Below, piece by piece: positions 6,828-49,896 of a stretch of 64,000 nt of DNA (positions are counted from its first letter, which is position 1; every line of letters starts with the position of its first letter). Under the pieces are notes generated by a model, which saw only the letters and a list, made by a program, of their open reading frames with translations, ran no database searches and was not told the DNA's origin. This DNA comes from an uncultured Wocania sp. (lineage in GTDB: Bacteria; Bacteroidota; Bacteroidia; Flavobacteriales; Flavobacteriaceae): the NCBI RefSeq assembly GCF_964021735.1, contig NZ_CAXIBN010000001.1, forward strand, positions 5 through 64,004. Reading direction: 5' to 3'. Both the position numbers and the translations under genes were made by a program.

Positions 6828-7409
6828 CTAAATTAATAACTTAATATTAGCATAACTATTCTCTAATGCTTTTTTTGTTTCCTCTTTATTAAGCCATTCA
6901 ACTTTAGTAATACCTTCATTTTCTTGAGGGTAAAAATTTCCTTTAAAGCTCGTTTTCATTTCAAACCAATAGGTTATCTTTATTTTATAACGTCCGTTAC
7001 GCTTAAAAATATGGTATGTAGTTTCTAAAGGTTTTGTAATCTCTAATCCGCTAACTCCAGTTTCTTCAGTAACTTCTCTAATAGCAGTTCTCTCAATGCT
7101 TTCGTTACCTTCGGTTTTTCCTTTAGGCAAATCCCATTTATCATTTCTGTAAATAAATAAAATATCGCCATTATCATTATAAACTTTTCCACCTCCCGCA
7201 ATAACATTAGGTAACTTTTTAAGAAATCTTTTAAGCAGTTTATCCTCTTTTTTTCCAATAAGTCTAACCTCTTTAAGCTTTGTTCTGTTAAGTTTTCTAA
7301 TTACTTTACCCATATCTACTGTTTTAAGTAAATAATTTTTAAAGCCATCTTCTTTTTCAACTTTAGTCGTTAAAATTAAAGGTTTATCGTTAACAAAAAT
7401 TTTGTGCAT
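6828..7409 (-). CDS. NUDIX hydrolase with N-terminal extension
   Basis: Nudix box 'GKTEGNESIERTAIREVTEETGV'. Confidence 0.85.
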   Translation of the reverse strand: MHKIFVNDKPLILTTKVEKEDGFKNYLLKTVDMGKVIRKLNRTKLKEVRLIGKKEDKLLKRFLKKLPNVIAGGGKVYNDNGDILFIYRNDKWDLPKGKTEGNESIERTAIREVTEETGVSGLEITKPLETTYHIFKRNGRYKIKITYWFEMKTSFKGNFYPQENEGITKVEWLNKEETKKALENSYANIKLLI

Positions 7410-8266: not shown

Positions 8267-8662
8267 ATGAATTTAGAATCGCCCAAAATTAACGTTAATA
8301 AATCACCACAGGAGGTCTTTGATTTTTTATCTGATGTTAAAAACTTTGAATCTTTAATGCCAGAAAACATAAGTAAATTTGAAGTTTTAGATAACGACAA
8401 ATTTCTTTTTGCTTTAAAAGGCATGCCCGAAATAATACTTAAAAAGAAAGAAGCTATTGCTCCAAACAAAATTGTTTTAGGTGCTGCTGGTGGTAAATTA
8501 GATTTTTCGCTTATTGGTAATATAATTGAAGTAGAAAATGACTCTAGCGAAGTGCAGTTAGAATTTACTGGCGACTTTAACCCTATGATGGCAATGATGA
8601 TTAAAGGTCCAATAAGTAAATTTATTGAAACTCTGGCTACTAGTATTCCAAAGGCTATTTAG
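8267..8662 (+). CDS. SRPBCC (START/polyketide-cyclase-like) family protein
   Basis: 131 aa. N-terminal 'SPQEVFDFLSDVKNFESLMPE' is typical of SRPBCC proteins. Confidence 0.5.
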   Translation: MNLESPKINVNKSPQEVFDFLSDVKNFESLMPENISKFEVLDNDKFLFALKGMPEIILKKKEAIAPNKIVLGAAGGKLDFSLIGNIIEVENDSSEVQLEFTGDFNPMMAMMIKGPISKFIETLATSIPKAI

Positions 8663-9387
8663 TACATTAAAGTAATTTCTTTAAGATCAAATTTCTTAAC
8701 AATTTCGTCTTCTAAAAGCACTTGAAGTTTACCATATTTGGTAACACCCTTTATAAACCCAGAAAACAAATCACCTTCAGTGTTTTTAAATGTTGAAGGT
8801 TTATTTTTTCTAAATAAATTGGCCTCATATTCATTTTTAACAGCATCATATTCACCTTGCTGCAAAAGTTTGGAATATTCCTTAGTGTGCTTGATAATAC
8901 GATGCAAAATTTCATCTAAATTATAATGTACTCCTGTAATGTTTTTTAAAGACGATGCTTGAGGAAGATTGTTAAACTCCGTCTGATTTACATTAATTCC
9001 AATACCAATAATTGTAGAATTAAGCTTGTTTTTTATGACATTTTCAATCAAAATCCCACAAACCTTCTTATCTACTGACAAAATGTCGTTAGGCCACTTA
9101 ATACTTAAATGAGGGATATTTAAAGTTTTTAAAGTTTTTAAAATCGCCAAAGAAATAGCCATGCTAATATAAAAAGGAAACTCAACCTCATGCAAACGCA
9201 AATCCTTAAACATGCTAAAGATAAGGTTCTTACCCCTATCAGAATCCCAATTCGTACCCATTTGCCCACGACCATTTGTTTGGTATTCTGCAATAACAAC
9301 AGTATAATCGGCAACATCTTCATTACAAATCATTTCTTTTAAAAAAGAATTTGTTGAGTCGATGGCATTAAGTTTGATTATACGCAT
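8659..9387 (-). CDS. birA: biotin--[acetyl-CoA-carboxylase] ligase (no HTH domain)
   Basis: 'QTNGRGQMGTNWDS' (GRGRxGRxW-type), 242 aa. Confidence 0.85.
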   Translation of the reverse strand: MRIIKLNAIDSTNSFLKEMICNEDVADYTVVIAEYQTNGRGQMGTNWDSDRGKNLIFSMFKDLRLHEVEFPFYISMAISLAILKTLKTLNIPHLSIKWPNDILSVDKKVCGILIENVIKNKLNSTIIGIGINVNQTEFNNLPQASSLKNITGVHYNLDEILHRIIKHTKEYSKLLQQGEYDAVKNEYEANLFRKNKPSTFKNTEGDLFSGFIKGVTKYGKLQVLLEDEIVKKFDLKEITLMY

Positions 9388-9453
9388 TTACAAGTTATTT
9401 TAAACCTTTAAAATCTTATGATTATTTTAAAGTATAAAGAACTAAAAAAATAA

Positions 9454-9461
9454 TAACTTTG
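9454..9461 (+). promoter_or_regulatory. -7 box TAACTTTG for rsfS-ftsH
   Basis: TAnnTTTG 19 nt upstream of the ATG at 9481. Confidence 0.45.
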
Positions 9462-9480
9462 CACAAATTAAATAAAATTA

Positions 9481-9852
9481 ATGGCGAAAGAAAAAATAAG
9501 CCCAGATCAATTAATATCTGTTATAATAAGTGGCATTGAAGATGTTAAAGGTAAAGAAATAAATATCCTAGATTTAAGAGATATAGAAAACACAGTTTGC
9601 GACTACTTTATAATTTGCGAAGGTACTTCAAACACACAAGTAAACGCCATAGTAAACTCAATTCAAAAAAAGGTAAGTAAAGAGTTAAAAGATAACCCTT
9701 GGCATACAGAAGGTTTAGATAATGCCGAATGGGTATTAATAGACTATGTTAATATTGTTGTACATGTGTTTCAAAAACATATTCGAGAATATTATGATAT
9801 TGAGAGTCTTTGGGGAGATGCAAAAACAACAGTAATAGAAACTAGCTACTAA
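9481..9852 (+). CDS. rsfS: ribosome silencing factor
   Basis: 123 aa, 'DYFIICEGTSNTQVNAI ... WVLIDYVNIVVHVF'. Confidence 0.9.
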   Translation: MAKEKISPDQLISVIISGIEDVKGKEINILDLRDIENTVCDYFIICEGTSNTQVNAIVNSIQKKVSKELKDNPWHTEGLDNAEWVLIDYVNIVVHVFQKHIREYYDIESLWGDAKTTVIETSY

Positions 9853-41171: not shown

Positions 41172-42206
41172 CTATCTAAACCCGAAGTTTAAACCTACTG
41201 AAAATGCATTAAATTCGGCTAAATGATATTCGGCATTAAGTCTAAAAAAACCTAATTTTAATTTTGTCCCTATAGTACCTCTAACCGCTGATGCTTCACT
41301 TGAAACTGAAAAAGGGTCTGTAATAGTTTGAGATAATAATGGTCCATTTGAAATAGTATAACTTCCTAATAAATCGGATTCTGATTTACCTTTAATATAT
41401 CCTAAACCACCATAAAAATTAATGACAGGTAATTTTGTTGATGCAATTAATTGGAACAACCACGTATTTGTATCATTTTCTATGCGTTGATTATTACCAC
41501 TTATTCCAGATGAATCTGTTAAATCGTAAGTACCATCTAAATGCGTATAAGCTATCAAACCTGAAATGGCGACAGGCAATAATTTATCGGCAGGTAGCCA
41601 TTTGGTAAATTCCATTTGCAATCCGGCACCATACATGCTAATATCCACATCATCCGTATCAATTTTGGGTACAAAACGTGCTTTAACTTCTATGCCTTTA
41701 CTAAGTCCAATAGCTCCTTGAATAAAAGCTGTTGGTAATAAGTTTGCTGTATCAGAACCTATGCCACTAGGCAACGTTATGGTTTCCTGTTGCTGTCCTA
41801 AAATAGGATCATCATAAGTAACTACTATATTGATATCTGGATCATTTTCCCCTAAAGCTGTTGCTACAGATTTTGAAGTTGAAGCATCTGTAAACGAAAC
41901 AACAAAATCTTGGTCTGGATCACTATTGTAATCTGCAATATTCATTAAGAATGATTTATGATTATTTTGTATTGTAGCTGCATTAGCTATAATTGAAATT
42001 TCAAAACCTCCAAGTGGTTTTGCATCTGCTGTATTAAACCAACCAGCATTCATACTATGCATTAAACCATTGGTACCTGTCATTAAATAATCATTCGCAA
42101 AACGTTCAGCATTTTTTACACCTGCTGTTAATAAAGCATCAATATCTTGTGCTTTTGAAGTAATTGTCGCTAAAAACAACAACATAAGTAGCATTAACTT
42201 TTTCAT
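41172..42206 (-). CDS. hypothetical outer-membrane beta-barrel-like protein
   Basis: Signal peptide ending 'SKAQ'. Alternating amphipathic strands and an aromatic-rich C-terminus '...NAFSVGLNFGFR'. Confidence 0.5.
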   Translation of the reverse strand: MKKLMLLMLLFLATITSKAQDIDALLTAGVKNAERFANDYLMTGTNGLMHSMNAGWFNTADAKPLGGFEISIIANAATIQNNHKSFLMNIADYNSDPDQDFVVSFTDASTSKSVATALGENDPDINIVVTYDDPILGQQQETITLPSGIGSDTANLLPTAFIQGAIGLSKGIEVKARFVPKIDTDDVDISMYGAGLQMEFTKWLPADKLLPVAISGLIAYTHLDGTYDLTDSSGISGNNQRIENDTNTWLFQLIASTKLPVINFYGGLGYIKGKSESDLLGSYTISNGPLLSQTITDPFSVSSEASAVRGTIGTKLKLGFFRLNAEYHLAEFNAFSVGLNFGFR

Positions 42207-42313: not shown

Positions 42314-44866
42314 TTAAAAATTTATTCTTAGACTTAAATTTGGGGTTAAACCAAGGGATTTATTATTTATTTGAATAGCTGAGTTAGAGTTCTCTGGATC
42401 TACCTCATAATATCTGTTAATACTGTTTTTCTTATTAATAAGATTAATAACTCCTGCACTTATAGAGGCATTAGTGGTGTTTGAAATATTAAAATTATAT
42501 TTAACAGAAGTATCTAATCTCATGAAATCATCTAAATTTTCATTATTAGGTAAATCATAATTAACTACTGTGTTATTACCATTCTGTATGGTCTCATTTC
42601 CTTCAACTGGTTTTGTATAGGGATGACCAGATCTCCAAATACCACCTATTGATATTTTTAAGTCATCTACAATATCATAATTAAAAGCCAAAGAAAACGA
42701 ATGTCTAATATCTACATTGTTAGGAAAAACGGATGGTGTAAAACTTTCAAATTTGTAATCATTAATACTATAAGTATAACTTAACCATGTACTATATTTA
42801 TTTGCGGTTTTATTTATAAGAAATTCTACTCCTTTTACATGATAACTTCCTTCAGCATTTAAATGTTGAAAATTATTATAAAACCCTTGATTAGAAGCTG
42901 TAATTCCTTCAACAACTTTATAAAAACCTTCTACATCTATTACTAAATTGTTTTGATTAAATTCTAAACCAAAAGACGCTTGTTTACTCTCAGAAATTTT
43001 TATTTCTTTTTCATCGGCTAAAATCCAGCGTCGGTTTTCAACACCTAAAAAATCATCTTGAAAATCTATAATCTGAGTTGCTGATTGGTTTTTAAATTCG
43101 CCTTGTAACTTTAATGCAAAATAATGACTTAGTTTTTGCCTAAAATTTAATCTAGGCTCCATTAAAATTTTATTGAATTTTTGAAAATAATTTCCTCGAA
43201 CTCCTAATCTGAGGTAAGTATTCTGTTTTTTAAATTCTATTTCACTAAAAACTGCATGATTTAACAACACATCCTTTTTAGTTTTATCATAAGAAGGTAC
43301 ACTTACAGTGGTTTCGTTCAAAATACCAATTTCACTAAATTGATAACCACTTAAAAGGTTTAAGTAAGTATTAATTTTTAAATTAGTTTTAAGCTTAATT
43401 CCAGTTTCTAATACTTCATTTGCTTGCGTTAGTTTTTGGTCTGTTTCAATTCTGTAATCAACAGCGTCAACATTATACTTTGAGTAAAACATATTAAAAT
43501 TTGTTGCAAACTTAGTACTCCAACGTGCATTCCAGCTAGCTCCAATACCTAAATTTTGTTGCTTTAAGTTACTGGTTTTAGATTCCGTTTCATCATCAGT
43601 ACTAGTATAACTTTCCGTGTAATCTAAATTATTATTTATGCCAATAATGTTGGCTCTAAATTTATGATTCTCATTAAAATCAAAAAGCAGTTTTGCTGTA
43701 TAATCGTAAAAGAAAAACTCTGACGACTTGTTGCTTTCACTTATATTATCGCTGTTAGTAGTCAACTCACTATCTTGAAAACTACGCTCAAAATAAGTAT
43801 CGTAAGTCGGTGAGTTAAAAACATCTGTAAATGATCGCCTTCCGGATACATGCAATGCCAGTTTTTTACTTAATGGTATTTCAAAAAAAGCATCGGCATG
43901 TATTAAATTAATACCTAAACCGCCAGTAAAAACATCCCCTATTTTGTTTTTTGTTGACATATTAATGGTACTAGAAACACCATCACTAAACTCACTTGAA
44001 GTCCCATTTTTGGTAACTGTAACTTTGTTTGTTAAATAAGGGTTGTAAGCTGATATAAGTCCGAAAAAGTGCCCAGAATGATACATTTTAATATTATCCC
44101 AAAGTATTAAATTTTGGTCATTTGTACCTCCACGAACATTAATGTTTGCAATACTTTCGTTAACACTTTCTACTCCTGGTAAAGCTTGAATAGATTGCAT
44201 AATATCTGGTTCTGTGAGACCCGGTAAAATACCAAACTTCTCCGTATTTAAAACAGTACTCCCATCTATGCGTTTTTGTAAACCAGTGGTTAAAAATTTT
44301 GATATTAAAACCTGATTGAGTTCTTCATTCTTCATTTGCATTTCTATGGTCTTACAAGTATTACTTAATAACATTAAATCCACAGCTTTGAAGATCTGTG
44401 TTTCAAAGCCTAAAAATGATATGATTATCTTTTTACTTATATCAACTTCATTCAAAGTAAAAGTGCCATCAATATCTGAGACAACTCCATTTGTAGAGTT
44501 TTCAATTAAAACCGAAGCCCCAAGTAAAGGTTCTTTATTTTTTTCTGAAACCAAAACACCACAAATAGATATGGTTTTATTAATGGTAGAGACTGTTATA
44601 TAACGCTCGTTGAGGAATTTAAAATTTAAAAGTGTGGTTGCATTTAAATTCTCAATAATTTGATTTAATGTATCAGATTTGTTCGGTGTGTTAACCAAAA
44701 CACCACTTACATCATTTACCGAATAGGAAAACTTAACATCAAATTGTTTTTCTAATTTCTGCATTAAATCCAATAAAGGCATCCTTTCTTCAGTTTGAAA
44801 ACCAAAAGAAAAACAACAATAGATAGAAAATAAAATTAATAAGTATTTAGTTCTTAGCATAGTCAT
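42314..44866 (-). CDS. TonB-dependent receptor with N-terminal STN signalling domain and CarboxypepD_reg domain
   Basis: STN-like 'LLDLMQKLEKQFDVKFSY'. CarboxypepD_reg 'ICGVLVSEKNKEPLLGASVLIENSTNGVVSDIDGTFTL'. Plug 'ALPGVESV ... INVRGG'. Terminal '...LSLRINF'. The start is ambiguous (44860, 44866 or 44887). Confidence 0.85.
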   Translation of the reverse strand: MTMLRTKYLLILFSIYCCFSFGFQTEERMPLLDLMQKLEKQFDVKFSYSVNDVSGVLVNTPNKSDTLNQIIENLNATTLLNFKFLNERYITVSTINKTISICGVLVSEKNKEPLLGASVLIENSTNGVVSDIDGTFTLNEVDISKKIIISFLGFETQIFKAVDLMLLSNTCKTIEMQMKNEELNQVLISKFLTTGLQKRIDGSTVLNTEKFGILPGLTEPDIMQSIQALPGVESVNESIANINVRGGTNDQNLILWDNIKMYHSGHFFGLISAYNPYLTNKVTVTKNGTSSEFSDGVSSTINMSTKNKIGDVFTGGLGINLIHADAFFEIPLSKKLALHVSGRRSFTDVFNSPTYDTYFERSFQDSELTTNSDNISESNKSSEFFFYDYTAKLLFDFNENHKFRANIIGINNNLDYTESYTSTDDETESKTSNLKQQNLGIGASWNARWSTKFATNFNMFYSKYNVDAVDYRIETDQKLTQANEVLETGIKLKTNLKINTYLNLLSGYQFSEIGILNETTVSVPSYDKTKKDVLLNHAVFSEIEFKKQNTYLRLGVRGNYFQKFNKILMEPRLNFRQKLSHYFALKLQGEFKNQSATQIIDFQDDFLGVENRRWILADEKEIKISESKQASFGLEFNQNNLVIDVEGFYKVVEGITASNQGFYNNFQHLNAEGSYHVKGVEFLINKTANKYSTWLSYTYSINDYKFESFTPSVFPNNVDIRHSFSLAFNYDIVDDLKISIGGIWRSGHPYTKPVEGNETIQNGNNTVVNYDLPNNENLDDFMRLDTSVKYNFNISNTTNASISAGVINLINKKNSINRYYEVDPENSNSAIQINNKSLGLTPNLSLRINF

Positions 44867-45761
44867 AGAACTCAACTTTATTGCCATTTATTTTATAGCT
44901 TAATTTAAGCGGAATGGTTACAGACTGCAACGCAATATTTTTATCGACGTGCGTAAAGCTTCCTGAAAAAGCTTTAGTAACATCGACCTTTGAAGCATCA
45001 ATAATTATATTATATTGAATTTCTAATTCATTAATAACTTGCCAAAGTGGCACATTATCAAATGAAGACTCTTTAGCTAACCAAGATGGGTTTTCAGCAT
45101 TAAAGTCTTTAGTTAAATCAATTTCGTTATTAATAACTCTAAATGATTTTCCTGGTGTAAGTATCACTTTTTGTTTATTATGTGTTACACTTACGGAACC
45201 TTCATAACATTGTACTTCAAAATAATTAGAACGCTCTTTTACATTAAATTGTGTACCCAATACTTGAATACTACCGGCATCTGTATTAACTGTAAATTTT
45301 TCGCCTTTTGTTACTTTAAAAAAGGCTTCTCCTTCTAAATCTAGACTTCTGTTATTTTTCCATTCTTTTTTATTAAAGGATAATTTAGATTGTGCATTTA
45401 AAATAACTTCTGAATTGTCTGGCAGATTAAACGTTTCTGTTTGTGCAATTTCAGTTGAATACGATTTTGTATTGTTAAAGAATAAAAAATAAGACGATGT
45501 TAACATAACTACTAAAACAGCAGCTACTTTTAAAAACGATTGAAAATTTAAAGGAATTACTTTAGAAGCTTCTTTCTTAAAAGCTTTAGTTTTAAATTCT
45601 GCTAAAGCTTTTTGAGCATCCACTTTAGGCGTATCAATTTGTTTGGCATAAAAAGCTGTTTTTTCCAATGCTGAAAAGTCTTCATCGGGATATCGCTTTT
45701 TAATTTCAGTAGTAGATATATCACCATTAAACCATTTTAATATGTCGTTTTCTTTGTTCAT
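44847..45761 (-). CDS. FecR-family anti-sigma factor / signal transducer
   Basis: Central TM 'VAAVLVVMLTSSYFLFF'. FecR domain 'LPDNSEVILNAQSKLSF ... LEGEAFFKV ... VLGTQFNV'. C-terminal DUF4974-like tail. Confidence 0.85.
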   Translation of the reverse strand: MNKENDILKWFNGDISTTEIKKRYPDEDFSALEKTAFYAKQIDTPKVDAQKALAEFKTKAFKKEASKVIPLNFQSFLKVAAVLVVMLTSSYFLFFNNTKSYSTEIAQTETFNLPDNSEVILNAQSKLSFNKKEWKNNRSLDLEGEAFFKVTKGEKFTVNTDAGSIQVLGTQFNVKERSNYFEVQCYEGSVSVTHNKQKVILTPGKSFRVINNEIDLTKDFNAENPSWLAKESSFDNVPLWQVINELEIQYNIIIDASKVDVTKAFSGSFTHVDKNIALQSVTIPLKLSYKINGNKVEFYDYAKN

Positions 45762-45780: not shown

Positions 45781-45807
45781 TAAGACACCTATATATATAT
45801 TTACCCT
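45781..45807 (-). promoter_or_regulatory. candidate ECF-sigma promoter, copy 1 (AGGGTAAA-N10-GGTGTCTTA), drives fecR and the TonB receptor
   Basis: Perfect match on the minus strand, between the sigma stop (45815) and the fecR ATG (45761). Confidence 0.5.
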
Positions 45808-45814
45808 ACCCTAA

Positions 45815-46330
45815 TTAAATATTTTCTATATGTGCTCTTAATATTTTTAGTGCGCCAGACATTCTTTTTTCAACTGCTTTTTGAGAAACCTCTAATAACT
45901 CAGCTATTTCTCTATATTTTTTTCCGTCTATTCTGTTTAATAAAAACACTTCGCGTTGCGCTTCAGTTAATAATGATATGGCATTTTGTAGTTTCGCTTT
46001 AAACTCTTCTTCTTCTAATAAGTATTCTGGACTCTCATTTGTTTTATCAACATAAGGAGCGGCTTTTGCATACTCTAAAACTACTTTATTATGCTTCACT
46101 TTATTTAAAAACAAATTATTAACTGTAGTAAATAAATATGTTTTTGCCTTTGTAAAATCTATTTTAGAACAATTCTCCCAAATTTTAGAAAATGCATCTT
46201 GAACCAAGTCTAATGCATTATCCTTATCACCACATTTATAGTACGCAAAATTACTAGCATGCTGAATGTTCTCTAAATAAAATGCATTAAAGTAAGTTTC
46301 TTCGCAAAGTTTAAGATCGTTACTATCCAT
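45815..46330 (-). CDS. ECF-type RNA polymerase sigma factor (FecI-like)
   Basis: Region 2 'ALDLVQDAFSKIWEN ... AKTYLFTTVNNLFLNKV'. Region 4 'KKYREIAELLEVSQKAVEKRM'. Adjacent to FecR and the TonB receptor. Confidence 0.85.
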   Translation of the reverse strand: MDSNDLKLCEETYFNAFYLENIQHASNFAYYKCGDKDNALDLVQDAFSKIWENCSKIDFTKAKTYLFTTVNNLFLNKVKHNKVVLEYAKAAPYVDKTNESPEYLLEEEEFKAKLQNAISLLTEAQREVFLLNRIDGKKYREIAELLEVSQKAVEKRMSGALKILRAHIENI

Positions 46331-46371
46331 TAATTGGTAAATATTAAAATTATAAGTTATTATTCTTTTTA

Positions 46372-46379
46372 CAAAAATA
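46372..46379 (-). promoter_or_regulatory. -7 box TATTTTTG for the ECF sigma gene
   Basis: The minus strand reads TATTTTTG, 41 nt upstream of the ATG at 46330. It abuts motif copy 2 on the other strand. Confidence 0.4.
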
Positions 46380-46405
46380 GGGTAAATTAATTTTTAGTTG
46401 TCTTT
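46379..46405 (+). promoter_or_regulatory. candidate ECF-sigma promoter, copy 2 (degenerate: AGGGTAAA-N10-GTTGTCTTT)
   Basis: Same -35-like half and the same 10-nt spacing, with 2 mismatches in the downstream half. Lies 8 nt before the ATG at 46413. Confidence 0.35.
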
Positions 46406-46412
46406 AAGTTAT

Positions 46413-46541
46413 ATGAAACAAAAATATAATATTATGAAATCTGAAACAATTATTAAGATAGTTGAAACTCTATTAAAAATTGTATTGATTGTATGCGTTT
46501 TAGCCTCTATAAATTTAATAACAAAAATTATTTTTAAATAA
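46413..46541 (+). CDS. unannotated small hydrophobic ORF (42 aa; alternative start 46434, 35 aa)
   Basis: MKQKYNIMKSETIIKIVETLLKIVLIVCVLASINLITKIIFK: one predicted TM helix with Lys-rich ends. Sits exactly between motif copies 2 and 3. It is below the ORF-track length cut-off. Confidence 0.3.
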   Translation: MKQKYNIMKSETIIKIVETLLKIVLIVCVLASINLITKIIFK

Positions 46542-46546
46542 AAAGT

Positions 46547-46573
46547 AGGGTAAACTTAAACACAGGTGTCTTA
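46547..46573 (+). promoter_or_regulatory. candidate ECF-sigma promoter, copy 3 (AGGGTAAA-N10-GGTGTCTTA)
   Basis: Perfect match, 65 nt upstream of the ATG at 46638. Confidence 0.5.
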
Positions 46574-46637
46574 CTTATAGAAAGGCGAAAAAATCGCTAT
46601 GAAAAAGAAAAAAATATAAACCCAAAAAATTAGTATT

Positions 46638-47690
46638 ATGAAAACCTTAAAATTATTTACAGCAATCTTATTTCTATCATTTTTAGGATTAACGTCTTGT
46701 CAAGATGAAATTGATAACGAAAATGGACAAAATCCAAACACAAACTCAGCAAACTCAGAAACAGCAAATAACTTAGAACGCTCATCAATGTACGATGGTA
46801 GTTTTGATGACTTTTTAGACGGCATGTCTTGCTCTTCTATTTTATTGCCCGTTACTGCAACAATTAATAACACAGAAATAACTATTGTTAGTGAATCTCA
46901 ATACAACTTAGTTTTAAACATACTTGGAGAGTTTACTAATGATGAGGATTCTATTGAATTTCAATTCCCGCTTTCAGTAAAGTTAAGTAATTATACAGAA
47001 GTACAGATAGCAAATCAAACAGAGTATGATGCACTTATGAATGCTTGCGAACAGGCTGAACAAAATGCTGAAGATGCTATTAATTGTTTAGATATAGATT
47101 TCCCAATAACCATTCTAACTTACAACTTAAACATAGAGCAAACTGGTAGTGTTGTTATTGAGTCTGAAAAACAATTATACACTTACATGAATAACTTTGG
47201 TAATGATGAAAAATTTGCAATTAATTATCCAATAACAGCTACTTTAAATGGAGATACTATAGTAGAAATTACAAGCGATATTGATTTAAAAGCTCAAATT
47301 ACTGAATGTTTAGCTACAGACGAACTTAAAGAAGAGGCTGAAGAAAAGGCTAATACATTAGAAAGCATTTTAGTTGATGGGGCATTTAAAGTAGAATCAT
47401 TTGTAACAGCTGGTGTTGATACAGCTAATGATTATGCTAACTATTCTATAGATTTTGCTAACGATTTAACATGTTTAGCAAAACATACAGTAAATGCAAC
47501 TATTGATGATGTACAAGGTACATATGCCGTAACATCAGAACTTGAAGTATTTTTAAATCTAACTTTTTCAGGAAATGCTACTTTCGAATTATTAAATAAT
47601 ACATGGGAAGTTACAAGCTACTCCGAAAGTTCGATCTCTCTGCAAAGCACAACAAATGCTGCAATAACTCTAGTATTAGCCCAAATATAA
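46638..47690 (+). CDS. hypothetical lipoprotein with internal Cys-bounded repeats
   Basis: Lipobox 'LTSC'. Two roughly 75-aa units, each bounded by Cys and containing two '(F/Y/L)P(I/V/L)(T/S)' sub-repeats (LLPVTATI, FQFPLSVKL, IDFPITILT, INYPITATL). Confidence 0.7.
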   Translation: MKTLKLFTAILFLSFLGLTSCQDEIDNENGQNPNTNSANSETANNLERSSMYDGSFDDFLDGMSCSSILLPVTATINNTEITIVSESQYNLVLNILGEFTNDEDSIEFQFPLSVKLSNYTEVQIANQTEYDALMNACEQAEQNAEDAINCLDIDFPITILTYNLNIEQTGSVVIESEKQLYTYMNNFGNDEKFAINYPITATLNGDTIVEITSDIDLKAQITECLATDELKEEAEEKANTLESILVDGAFKVESFVTAGVDTANDYANYSIDFANDLTCLAKHTVNATIDDVQGTYAVTSELEVFLNLTFSGNATFELLNNTWEVTSYSESSISLQSTTNAAITLVLAQI

Positions 47691-47726
47691 AACTAGATTC
47701 GCATTTGTTACGTATGTTATGGTAAA

Positions 47727-47756
47727 ACAGCTGTCAAGAATAGACAGCTGTTTTTA
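47727..47756 (+). terminator. rho-independent terminator after the repeat lipoprotein gene
   Basis: 9-bp stem acagctgtc/gacagctgt followed by T5. Confidence 0.75.
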
Positions 47757-47775
47757 ACAATTAAAAATAATTATA

Positions 47776-48561
47776 ATGAAACATAAATTTTTAATAACAC
47801 TTTTGCTTTTAGTCTTCATAAATTCATGTTCTAAAGAAGACATAACTAATACAGACCTTAATAATGGTACAGATAATGTAAATATAACTGCGAATCAAAA
47901 AGCAACAGGATCTTCATCTAACGATCTTTTATCTGATAATATATTTAAAAGTATGGTTATTGAAGTTGTTTATGTTGAAGGGTTTGAACCTACCCAAAAT
48001 ACTATTAATAATTTTAAATCATTTTTAGAAGCTCGAACTTTTAAACCTAATGGGATTACTATTGAAAAAAGAGCTATTACACCTACTGGAAAAGCAAAAT
48101 ACACCATTCAAGATATTATAACTATTGAAGATGCAAATAGAACCAAATACAACACGAATAATCAAATAGCCGTTTGGGCATTTTTTGCGGATGGAGAGTC
48201 AGACAAAAACACTAATAATAGTGTTGTTTTAGGCACTGCTTATAGAAACACCTCTTTTGTGATTTTTGAAGAAACTATTAAAAATTTAAGCAATAGTACT
48301 TTTGAACCCGATAGAAGTGTTTTAGAAACAACAGTTATAACACATGAGTTTGGGCATATTTTAGGTCTTACAAACCTGGGTTCAGATATGGTTAATGACC
48401 ATGAAGATTCAGAGCATGCTAAACATTGTAATGTTGAAAGCTGCTTAATGTATTGGTCTGCAGAAACTGGAGATGGTCTATCAAATTTAATTGGAAATAG
48501 TAATGCCCCACAATTAGATTCGCAATGTATAGCTGATTTGCAAGCTAATGGCGGGAAATAA
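47776..48561 (+). CDS. zinc metalloprotease lipoprotein (HExxH; archaemetzincin/M54-like CX4CXM)
   Basis: Lipobox 'INSC'. 'HEFGHILGL' followed by 'KHCNVESCLM'. Confidence 0.6.
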   Translation: MKHKFLITLLLLVFINSCSKEDITNTDLNNGTDNVNITANQKATGSSSNDLLSDNIFKSMVIEVVYVEGFEPTQNTINNFKSFLEARTFKPNGITIEKRAITPTGKAKYTIQDIITIEDANRTKYNTNNQIAVWAFFADGESDKNTNNSVVLGTAYRNTSFVIFEETIKNLSNSTFEPDRSVLETTVITHEFGHILGLTNLGSDMVNDHEDSEHAKHCNVESCLMYWSAETGDGLSNLIGNSNAPQLDSQCIADLQANGGK

Positions 48562-48588
48562 TTTTTTTTAACTCAAAATTATAGAAAT

Positions 48589-49182
48589 ATGAAAACTAAA
48601 TTTTTAACAACAATATTAATTATAACGGTGCTTTTTAATGCAAAAGCACAAGAAAATAAAAACTCAACTAAGTCTAATACTGGTATAAAACTAGGCTATA
48701 ATTTAGCAGCTGTTAATTTTGATGGCGATACTGAAACCGGACAAAGACATGCATTTCATGTGGGTTTTTATGGAGAATCTTTTTTAAACGAAAGTGTTGC
48801 TCTTCAAATTGAATTATTATACTCACAACAAGGTTACGAATTACAAGATAATGGCGGCACTTTTACCCAAAAATTAAATTATATAAATCTACCATTACTA
48901 CTAAAAATATATCCAAGTGAAAACTTTTTTTTAGAAGCTGGTCCTCAAATTGGTTTAGCCATTTCTCATAAAGAAGAGTTTGATAGCAGCTTTGGTTTAT
49001 TTGATACCTCTCAAGAATTTAACCCTAGCAACTATGATTGGGGTATAAACTTAGGTGGTGGTTTTAAAACAAACTCAGGAGTATCTTTAGGCATTCGTTA
49101 TCATATAGGAATGGGTGATGTTTACGACGAAGGAAGTCCAAAAAATAGAGTATGGCAATTCTCATTGGGCTTTGATTTTTAA
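48589..49182 (+). CDS. small outer-membrane beta-barrel (porin-family / OMP_b-brl_2-like) protein
   Basis: Signal peptide ending 'AKAQ'. 'GIKLGYNLA', 'YINLPLLLK', terminal 'WQFSLGFDF'. Lies 27 nt after the protease gene. Confidence 0.75.
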   Translation: MKTKFLTTILIITVLFNAKAQENKNSTKSNTGIKLGYNLAAVNFDGDTETGQRHAFHVGFYGESFLNESVALQIELLYSQQGYELQDNGGTFTQKLNYINLPLLLKIYPSENFFLEAGPQIGLAISHKEEFDSSFGLFDTSQEFNPSNYDWGINLGGGFKTNSGVSLGIRYHIGMGDVYDEGSPKNRVWQFSLGFDF

Positions 49183-49200
49183 ACTTAAGAACTCAAACCA

Positions 49201-49238
49201 AAAAGACCATCAAAACTAATATTTTTGATGGTCTTTTT
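49201..49238 (+). terminator. rho-independent terminator
   Basis: 15-bp stem aaaagaccatcaaaa/ttttgatggtctttt followed by a T run. Confidence 0.8.
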
Positions 49239-49316
49239 ATATATAAACCTACGAGGTTTATTAATCATAGATGTATAATTAAATGACACTTTTCCAATTT
49301 AAATTAAAATAATAGT

Positions 49317-49343
49317 AGGGTAAAAAAGGTTTAAGGTGTCTTA
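49317..49343 (+). promoter_or_regulatory. candidate ECF-sigma promoter, copy 4 (AGGGTAAA-N10-GGTGTCTTA)
   Basis: Perfect match, 43 nt upstream of the ATG at 49386. Confidence 0.5.
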
Positions 49344-49385: not shown

Positions 49386-49841
49386 ATGAAAATATTTAAA
49401 ACATCAGTATTTATTATTGTTCTAAGTTTTTCATTTGTGATACAAGCTCAAGATTCTGAATCATCAAATGAAACAAAAATTGATAAAAAATCATATTATC
49501 AAAAAAGAGCATTAGAAGATGCTAAATATGAACAACAATTTAGTGCAGCAACTAAAGCAGAAGAAGAAACCTTTTGGAAAGATCAAAAAAATTATGAAAG
49601 TGATTTAAAAAGAAAAGACAGAAAAGCCTATAAAGCTTATATGAAGGGCAAAAAAGATGCCTATGCAGAACATTACGAGCATTGTAGCCATAATTGTCAT
49701 CATAGTGATTACTATTATCACCACGCAACATTTTATTATTACAGGTACGATGGATATTACTATGAGAGATATCCTAGAAGAAGTACTATAAACACAAGAG
49801 TAAACGTAAGTACTCCAAATGTACGTTTAGGATTATTCTAA
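49386..49841 (+). CDS. secreted His/Tyr/Cys-rich protein of unknown function
   Basis: Signal peptide ending 'IQAQ'. Lys/Glu-rich helical middle. C-terminal 'HYEHCSHNCHHSDYYYHHATFYYYRYDGYYYERY'. Confidence 0.65.
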   Translation: MKIFKTSVFIIVLSFSFVIQAQDSESSNETKIDKKSYYQKRALEDAKYEQQFSAATKAEEETFWKDQKNYESDLKRKDRKAYKAYMKGKKDAYAEHYEHCSHNCHHSDYYYHHATFYYYRYDGYYYERYPRRSTINTRVNVSTPNVRLGLF

Positions 49842-49852
49842 ACATTTTACAG

Positions 49853-49896
49853 TAAAAAAAAATAGGCTATCAGAAAAAAGATAGCCTATTTTTTTA
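49853..49896. terminator. bidirectional terminator (His/Tyr-rich gene / gyrB)
   Basis: Stem aataggctatc/gatagcctatt flanked by A8 and T8 runs. Confidence 0.8.

Follow-up and report, generated by a model that had tools for sequence, protein, structure and literature searches.

Four copies of a two-block DNA element, located in a 64,000-nt stretch of the genome of an uncultured Wocania sp. (Flavobacteriaceae; positions 5 to 64,004 of contig NZ_CAXIBN010000001.1; hereafter, the window), are very probably promoters read by a sigma factor of the extracytoplasmic function (ECF) class that is encoded beside them, at 45815-46330. The initial annotation of the window had proposed that the element is the cognate promoter of this local sigma factor, linking fecR and the receptor gene to divergently encoded secreted proteins. 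The proposal gained strong support from footprinting, from tests anchored on orthologs, and from a scan of species genomes. The four copies and the three genes of the predicted signalling cassette are:

45781-45809, minus strand: copy 1, predicted ECF promoter of the fecR-TonB receptor unit, GTAGGGTAAA-N12-TGTCTTA, 47.5 bits
46377-46405, plus strand: copy 2, weaker predicted ECF promoter upstream of a small ORF, ATAGGGTAAA-N12-TGTCTTT, 21.7 bits
46545-46573, plus strand: copy 3, predicted ECF promoter of a lipoprotein operon, 45.6 bits
49315-49343, plus strand: copy 4, predicted ECF promoter of a gene for a His/Tyr-rich protein, 40.4 bits
45815-46330, minus strand: ECF sigma factor gene, 171 aa, FecI-like Bacteroidetes type (Pfam Sigma70_r2 and Sigma70_r4_2)
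44847-45761, minus strand: fecR-type anti-sigma/sigma regulator gene, 304 aa (Pfam FecR PF04773, 8.3e-20, and FecR_C PF16344)
42314-44887, minus strand: TonB-dependent receptor gene with an N-terminal signalling-type extension (Pfam and NCBIfam)

The scores come from a weight matrix built on 164 sites, all of them from genomes other than that of the window. When both strands of the 64 kb were scanned with it, the next best position after the four copies scored -9.3 bits. A pattern search allowing up to three mismatches returned five matches against 0.23 expected, a number reached in 0/100 shuffles, and four oriented copies fell inside 3.6 kb, where chance would give 0.23. The fifth match (7220-7246, minus strand, three mismatches) was attributed to chance; it was not among the top positions of the independent weight-matrix scan. 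Direct reading of the sequence and the pattern search agreed on the coordinates and strands that the initial annotation had given for all four copies. With its shorter pattern, AGGGTAAA-N10-GGTGTCTTA, the segments 45781-45807 (minus), 46547-46573 (plus), and 49317-49343 (plus) matched at 17/17 specified positions, and 46379-46405 (plus) is an imperfect copy with two mismatches. Its description of the flanks was likewise borne out, TAGGGTAAA being common to the four copies and TTA(T/C)TTATAGAA following copies 1 and 3, and its distances from copy to start codon were right under its own way of counting. The predicted transcription starts are 45775 (minus) for copy 1 and 46411, 46579, and 49349 (all plus) for copies 2, 3, and 4, respectively. 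Copy 1 begins 5 nt past the sigma stop codon, and the predicted fecR leader is only 14 nt long.

Loci were fetched around the sigma orthologs of Wocania ichthyoenteri, Hwangdonia, Algibacter, Tamlana, Lacinutrix, Aquaticitalea, and Olleya. They have in common a divergent core of six genes, with the porin, the 260-aa lipoprotein, and the 350-aa lipoprotein (one or two copies) on one side and the sigma factor, FecR, and the receptor on the other, while the genes around this core vary between genera. In each locus, the motif lay in the gap that separates the sigma stop codon from the start of fecR and also upstream of every 350-aa lipoprotein gene. In a broader test, orthologs were collected by tblastn, and the 130 nt upstream of each start were searched for sites with at most three mismatches to the consensus. 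The motif was found upstream of the following genes, HY151 being the His/Tyr-rich protein:

fecR: 63/66
350-aa lipoprotein: 69/70
His/Tyr-rich protein (HY151): 49/49
sigma factor, own strand: 0/64
261-aa lipoprotein: 0/50
porin: 1/41
TonB receptor: 0/41
DUF6588 gene: 0/13

The first three rows answer in the affirmative the question, raised in the initial annotation, of whether the element is conserved in orthologous intergenic regions. The best match in shuffled upstream regions had four mismatches. Upstream of the sigma gene, the best own-strand match had six, equal to the shuffled controls (n = 64). The three fecR genes without the motif are distant paralogs. In the sigma-fecR spacer of 63 orthologous loci, in which FecR is 44-100% identical, the motif was always present, 5-8 nt past the sigma stop codon. 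The end of the motif was 16-23 nt away from the ATG of fecR, 36-82 nt from that of the 350-aa lipoprotein gene (mostly 59-65, with two at 36 and the others at 47-82), and mostly 40-53 nt from that of HY151 (three at 23-29). All ortholog-associated sites were oriented at the gene.

A refined 17-base pattern was then scanned over 185,579 species genomes, with one genome per species, and gave at least 119 matching stretches with at least 149 exact sites. About 107 of the 119 matching stretches listed belong to named Flavobacteriaceae genera, among them Flavobacterium, Mariniflexile, Algibacter, Leeuwenhoekiella, Winogradskyella, Polaribacter, and Kordia; a few evident chance matches (Shewanella, Scytonema, Streptococcaceae) were also among those listed. 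The first ORF downstream of the 149 exact sites listed was:

a His/Tyr-rich protein homolog: 43
a 350-aa lipoprotein homolog: 43
a FecR homolog: 32
a porin homolog: 1

The initial annotation had named a genome-wide search as the way to recognize a generic repeat. Instead, 119/149 of the exact sites listed precede three ortholog families and one porin homolog, all directed at the gene, and most of the remaining sites fall into a few recurrent classes, including the small peptide. The motif and layout also extend to sigma/FecR pairs that are less closely related, namely those of Tenacibaculum (sigma 47% identical), Salegentibacter (64%), and a Saprospiraceae bin.

The persistence of the motif at targets away from the cassette was clearest for HY151. 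Of 50 retrieved stretches carrying this gene, 28 had no cassette gene anywhere in the 8-kb block, and several Flavobacterium species carry the gene and the cassette on separate contigs; in both situations the motif was kept, as a trans-acting specificity factor predicts.

The consensus was redrawn from a logo of 101 unique sites, which came from sigma-anchored loci or from loci retrieved through another site and are therefore free of ascertainment bias. It reads (G)GTAGGGTAAA, nine variable nucleotides, A-R-K-TGTCTTA, four nucleotides, and a pyrimidine-purine step. In percent, the left block is G58 G90 T100 A98 G100 G100 G100 T90 A99 A97 A84, and the spacer consists of nine variable AT-rich positions. 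The right block is A70 R(G69) K(T73) T95 G100 T100 C100 T100 T94 A96; after it come four variable positions, a pyrimidine (97%), a purine (100%), any base, and A95. The consensus of the initial annotation was thus in part incorrect for the -10 block and did not span the whole of the -35 block: the GG that it placed ahead of TGTCTTA is not conserved as such, only R-K being seen in the logo. The distance between the blocks was constant in 181/185 orthologous sites.

The pyrimidine-purine step sits 5-6 nt past TGTCTTA. With +1 at the conserved purine, TGTCTTA would occupy -12 to -6 and GTAGGGTAAA about -34 to -25. ECF promoters usually have 15-18 nt between their 7-mer and 5-mer blocks, and the 16 nt from GTAGGGT to GTCTT are within that range (PMC7776599). 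The GTC core of the right block (logo positions 24-26) was invariant in the 101 unbiased sites. Such a core is typical of ECF -10 elements of the RpoE type. RpoE-type promoters (-35 GGAAC, -10 with GTC) resemble the element in their two blocks and in the GTC within TGTCTTA, with a downstream start that is here predicted; unlike them, the -35 block GTAGGGTAAA lacks the canonical AAC.

By its predicted domains, the cassette holds the full parts list of cell-surface (trans-envelope) signalling. According to Pfam, the sigma factor carries only the sigma-2 and sigma-4 regions; it scored 118.9 bits against NCBIfam TIGR02985 (Sig70_bacteroi1), for which the cut-off is 126.4, and its homologs are 75-94% identical across many Flavobacteriaceae genera. 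The receptor has, in order, a FecR_C (PF16344)-like domain at residues 35-99, CarbopepD_reg_2 at 108-194, and Plug at 228-301 (Pfam), with the barrel matched weakly, and NCBIfam reports a SusC/RagA N-terminal match. In its longest form, the receptor ORF shares 41 nt (44847-44887) with the end of fecR. The true start is probably a downstream ATG, since the receptors of relatives have 846-848 aa and an overlap of 11-14 nt, and translation of the two genes may be coupled. Because no motif precedes the receptor gene (0/41 loci), we took it as co-transcribed with fecR. The implied transcription units are fecR-receptor, the small ORF, lipoprotein-zincin-like lipoprotein-porin, and the His/Tyr-rich protein gene alone.

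From these parts we propose the following course of events. The sigma gene would be read from a housekeeping promoter of the TAnnTTTG type, with no ECF promoter of its own, and its transcript probably runs on into fecR and the receptor gene, which would supply basal amounts of the three proteins. FecR would keep the sigma factor inactive at the inner membrane until a ligand, bound at the receptor with its N-terminal signalling extension, frees it through FecR. RNA polymerase carrying the free sigma factor would bind GTAGGGTAAA as the -35 and TGTCTTA as the -10 element and start at the purine 6 nt further on. Firing of the fecR-receptor promoter would yield more receptor together with more anti-sigma, a feedback loop of the Has type. 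The same holoenzyme would fire the promoter of the 35-aa membrane peptide, that of the operon for the lipoprotein, the zincin-like lipoprotein, and the porin, whose leader carries a 5′ stem-loop, and that of the secreted His/Cys/Tyr-rich protein.

The housekeeping promoter assigned to the sigma gene is:

46372-46379, minus strand: TATTTTTG box, a TAnnTTTG -7 element of the housekeeping sigma-A type, 41 nt ahead of the start codon of the sigma gene

The initial annotation had credited the sigma gene with a TAnnTTTG box, and TATTTTTG was indeed read at this position. Among relatives, such a box was present at -31 to -54 in 29/64 sigma upstream regions. The TA of the box overlaps, on the opposite strand, the TA of TAGGGTAAA in copy 2, so that two base pairs are shared with the -35 block. 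The box abuts the opposite-strand motif in 13/18 loci having copy 2, and the clade with the shared -7/-35 arrangement comprises Wocania, Hwangdonia, Algibacter, and Mariniflexile. The divergent predicted starts of the sigma gene and copy 2 lie back to back, only 44 bp apart, and therefore the two polymerase footprints must overlap. Mutual exclusion of polymerases at these promoters is possible. A more elaborate circuit can also be imagined, in which the active ECF holoenzyme shuts off its own sigma gene by occlusion while inducing the anti-sigma factor, producing a pulse, with the 35-aa peptide perhaps modulating FecR, with hairpin-stabilized mRNAs, and with a family-wide envelope or metal-acquisition module under its control; we consider it rather unlikely.

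On the other side of the sigma gene, no terminator-like structure was detected in the 53-bp gap before fecR, which makes basal read-through from sigma into fecR likely. TAnnTTTG boxes at or after the motif were nearly absent from the fecR (3/66) and HY151 (0/49) regions, and the motif is thus the only recognizable promoter at these genes.

Several observations weigh against the assignment of the element to the adjacent sigma factor. The two are linked only by lying together and being conserved together. With GGGTAAA in place of GTAGGGT as the -35 core, ~13 nt would separate it from GTCTT, below the usual 15-18 nt (PMC7776599), which makes the assignment of the -35 and -10 blocks uncertain. The HY151 sites were mostly retrieved by the pattern itself and carry an ascertainment bias, of which the fecR and 350-aa lipoprotein statistics are free. 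The start-site tables of Flavobacterium psychrophilum do not contain this promoter, the start-site map of that species giving a CGT-type ECF motif only; the species has no FecI-like sigma factor. Finally, the figures of the genome scan are lower bounds, and the regulon is not claimed to be complete for any genome.

The element could be a real alternative-sigma promoter that is read by another sigma factor, encoded elsewhere, with the adjacent sigma/FecR pair merely one of its targets. Bacteroidetes genomes have on average 22.5 ECF sigma factors (PMC7826278), some regulon members are far from the cassette, and the sigma gene itself lacks the motif, all of which would suit such an arrangement. 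The last point loses its force because the absence of autoregulation is the rule for FecI-type sigma factors (PMC9249621). Moreover, the motif was tied to the cassette in each genomic context examined, stood 5-8 nt past the sigma stop codon in the 63 loci, and, in other genera, accompanies diverged forms of the sigma/FecR pair too. We thus regard a different sigma factor as improbable.

Somewhat less probable still is that the element is not a sigma site at all and serves as the operator of a DNA-binding activator or repressor. Conserved upstream motifs across a regulon are typical of transcription-factor sites as well, but this element is asymmetric and strictly gene-directed, and it combines two blocks at promoter spacing with a pyrimidine-purine step at the expected start. 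At fecR, ~18 nt separate its end from the ATG, too few for a separate promoter; TAnnTTTG boxes are all but missing at fecR and HY151, and the cassette has no conserved gene for a transcription factor. The idea of a dispersed repeat, or of similarity by chance, without any regulatory role would draw on nothing more than the AT-rich, repeat-prone make-up of the intergenic regions. It is refuted by the shuffling result, by the conservation of two blocks amid a spacer and flanks that vary freely, and by sites that are all intergenic, gene-directed, and at orthologous positions across genera.

Recognition by the adjacent ECF sigma factor, our preferred reading, places the window's system close to the Has system of Serratia marcescens (HasI/HasS/HasR). 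As reported for that system, HasI activates hasS and hasR, hasI is not autoregulated, and the proposed benefit is a fast shut-off by the accumulated anti-sigma factor (PMC9249621). Both systems have the order sigma, anti-sigma, receptor, a sigma gene without autoregulation, and a sigma-dependent promoter between the sigma and anti-sigma genes, so that the sigma factor would induce its own anti-sigma factor along with the receptor (PMC9249621). They differ in phylum and in promoter, the proposed HasI -35 element being TTTACGGGTTT. Whereas hasS and hasR each have a promoter, fecR and the receptor gene overlap here and would share one. No haemophore or Fur control was evident in our system, though no search for Fur boxes was made, and its predicted extra targets are lipoproteins, a porin, a small peptide, and an unlinked secreted protein.

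The E. coli FecI/FecR/FecA and Pseudomonas FpvI/FoxI/FiuI systems share with it an ECF sigma factor, a FecR-family regulator, a TonB-dependent transducer with an N-terminal extension, the lack of sigma autoregulation, and a small and local regulon. There, however, Fur controls a joint transcript of the sigma and anti-sigma genes, and the promoter that depends on the sigma factor stands before the receptor or transport genes only; here, the predicted promoter precedes the anti-sigma gene, and the regulon adds divergent and unlinked genes. The initial annotation had called a promoter between the sigma and anti-sigma genes unusual for this kind of cassette. It is uncommon relative to the Fec/Pseudomonas paradigm but not new, given the Serratia precedent (PMC9249621). 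Judged from the conserved position of the motif, Has-type wiring is a known variant that is here the norm for a whole clade.

Within its own phylum, the cassette resembles the Bacteroidetes FecI-like groups ECF239 and ECF240 (formerly ECF10) in taxon, in domains, and in having a FecR-like protein followed by a TonB receptor with a carboxypeptidase-regulatory-like domain. Unlike these groups with their SusC-like transducers, it has no SusD-like gene or carbohydrate-active enzyme. ECF240 is reported to have no experimentally addressed member (PMC7826278), and a large-scale regulon prediction failed most frequently for FecI-like sigma factors, which made up a disproportionate share of the ECFs left without one (PMC7776599). 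In 2020, Bacteroides thetaiotaomicron still had no known ECF motif, and among Bacteroidetes ECF sigma factors only the motif of B. fragilis EcfO had been defined (PMC7366714). For sigma factors linked to FecR, the B. thetaiotaomicron and BtModulome papers contain no motif, and a literature search with the motif strings returned unrelated papers only. Nothing comparable to the promoter was found in the literature that we reached, which did not cover the ECF Hub group descriptions, so an earlier in silico prediction is possible.

The regulatory system is of an ordinary kind and overturns no concept, being an unusually clean cell-surface-signalling ECF regulon with Has-type feedback. It is of interest because very little has been charted of the promoters that Bacteroidetes ECF sigma factors recognize. 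The sharply defined motif offers a directly testable promoter and, potentially, an orthogonal sigma-promoter pair for flavobacterial genetics. The predicted regulon is conserved in the family as a whole and joins four protein families of no known function, and it would be a second example, from a distant phylum, of a sigma factor that induces its own anti-sigma factor.

The features between copy 2 and the end of the HY151 gene are as follows:

46434-46541, plus strand: small ORF after copy 2, 35 aa, unannotated, hydrophobic, single-helix-like (MKSETIIKIVETLLKIVLIVCVLASINLITKIIFK)
46584-46598, plus strand: stem-loop GGCGA-AAAAA-TCGCT in the leader of the predicted lipoprotein mRNA, positions +6 to +20 (-5.4 kcal/mol, z = -2.1)
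46638-47690, plus strand: 350-aa lipoprotein gene, first long gene of the predicted induced operon, no Pfam or NCBIfam family
47776-48561, plus strand: 261-aa lipoprotein gene, HEFGH zincin-like motif, weak NCBIfam matches
48589-49182, plus strand: outer-membrane beta-barrel protein (porin) gene, 197 aa (Pfam OMP_b-brl_2, 2.7e-20)
49199-49239: terminator-like hairpin closing the lipoprotein operon (structure scan)
49386-49841, plus strand: gene for the His/Tyr-rich secreted protein HY151, 151 aa, with a signal peptide, a three-helix bundle, and a His/Cys/Tyr tail

The 35-aa ORF is most likely a real gene, as suggested by its relatives. An equivalent ORF of 33-37 aa starts 26-30 nt past the motif in several genera (10 distinct sequences), and its charged N-terminus and hydrophobic core are kept while the residues differ widely. 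It is not annotated as a gene in public assemblies. Of the candidate starts, ATG 46434 is the most likely, being the only one at the distance kept in relatives, and TTG 46398 and ATG 46413 found no support. In Olleya, Aquaticitalea, and Mariniflexile, the site equivalent to copy 2, imperfect in the window, fits the consensus exactly.

The lipoprotein leader was folded against shuffles of each sequence, and a catalog of its stems was compiled. The 63 orthologous leaders had a mean z of -3.1 with 32 different stem sequences, including GGCGA/TCGCT, AGCAC/GTGCT, GCAAA/TTTGC, and GAAAC/GTTTC, and the 5′ arm mostly began 8-10 nt past TGTCTTA. Pairing, and not sequence, is conserved. In the simplest reading, the hairpin would be a 5′-proximal stabilizing one. 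From 44 lipoprotein leaders aligned with MAFFT, RNAalifold derived no consensus structure, since the loops differ in length and the alignment did not match up the 3′ arms, and Rfam has no family for this leader. The HY151 leaders of other marine genera showed a weaker stem-loop (mean z -1.4), which is absent from the HY151 leader of the window. We also observed a conserved A-rich stretch, TATGAAAAAG, after the lipoprotein leader stem-loop in many marine genera.

Homologs of the 350-aa lipoprotein are all annotated as hypothetical protein or lipoprotein. Its AlphaFold2 model was poor (pLDDT 59.8), and Foldseek found no match at E ≤ 0.001. The gene is single in the window and tandemly duplicated in W. 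ichthyoenteri, Algibacter luteus, and Tamlana crocina (loci L006, at 8500-9788, L008, and L009), with the motif before each copy. In Flavobacterium, in addition to the ECF motif, a TAAATTTG box occurs ~6 nt before the ATG of this gene (31/70 upstream regions; for example, L040, L060, L062, and L127), which suggests a second, housekeeping, near-leaderless promoter. For the 261-aa lipoprotein, the NCBIfam matches were archaemetzincin and TIGR04549 (substrate import-associated zinc metallohydrolase lipoprotein), all far below the cut-off. Between these two genes, at 47725-47757 (plus), a 9-bp hairpin (ACAGCTGTC...GACAGCTGT) is followed by TTTTT; it is under the T-run threshold of the terminator scan and could attenuate the distal genes of the operon.

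HY151 belongs to a family confined to Flavobacteriaceae (136 clusters). Its tail has the invariant residues H96, C100, C104, and H106 (H-x3-C-x3-C-x-H) and many tyrosines, with a conserved VRLGLF at the end, and the predicted structure contains a confident three-helix bundle. No Pfam or NCBIfam family and no sequence or fold match was found for it. The PDB sequence search with the regulon proteins gave nothing better than E = 0.15, and the Pfam, NCBIfam, PDB, and fold searches yielded nothing pointing to a substrate. The metal-type tail of HY151 and the zincin-like lipoprotein hint, speculatively, at the handling of a metal or a metallo-cofactor. An Rfam csRNA match at 49800-49891 was rejected, being below threshold and coinciding with a terminator.

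Downstream of the receptor, a DUF6588 gene (41172-42206, minus strand) is syntenic in the closest genera. It was set aside as a regulon member, as it has its own TAnnTTTG box in 11/13 loci and lacks the ECF motif, and is probably outside the regulon.

In relatives, the exact motif also precedes a family of ~146-aa membrane/coiled-coil proteins (L018, L024, L074, L076, L112, L116), a class-A beta-lactamase-like protein (L082, L124), a DUF4382 lipoprotein (L106), a 1261-aa secreted protein with an HExxH motif (L019), and a 491-aa Cys-rich lipoprotein that lies beside a paralogous FecR-receptor pair (L025, L031, L089). None of these further families has a homolog in the window. The L031 contig is labelled as a Chitinophaga pinensis metagenome-assembled genome. 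Its motif flanks and the start of its 490/491-aa lipoprotein are nearly identical to those of the Flavobacteriaceae loci L025 and L089, and the contig was probably mis-binned.

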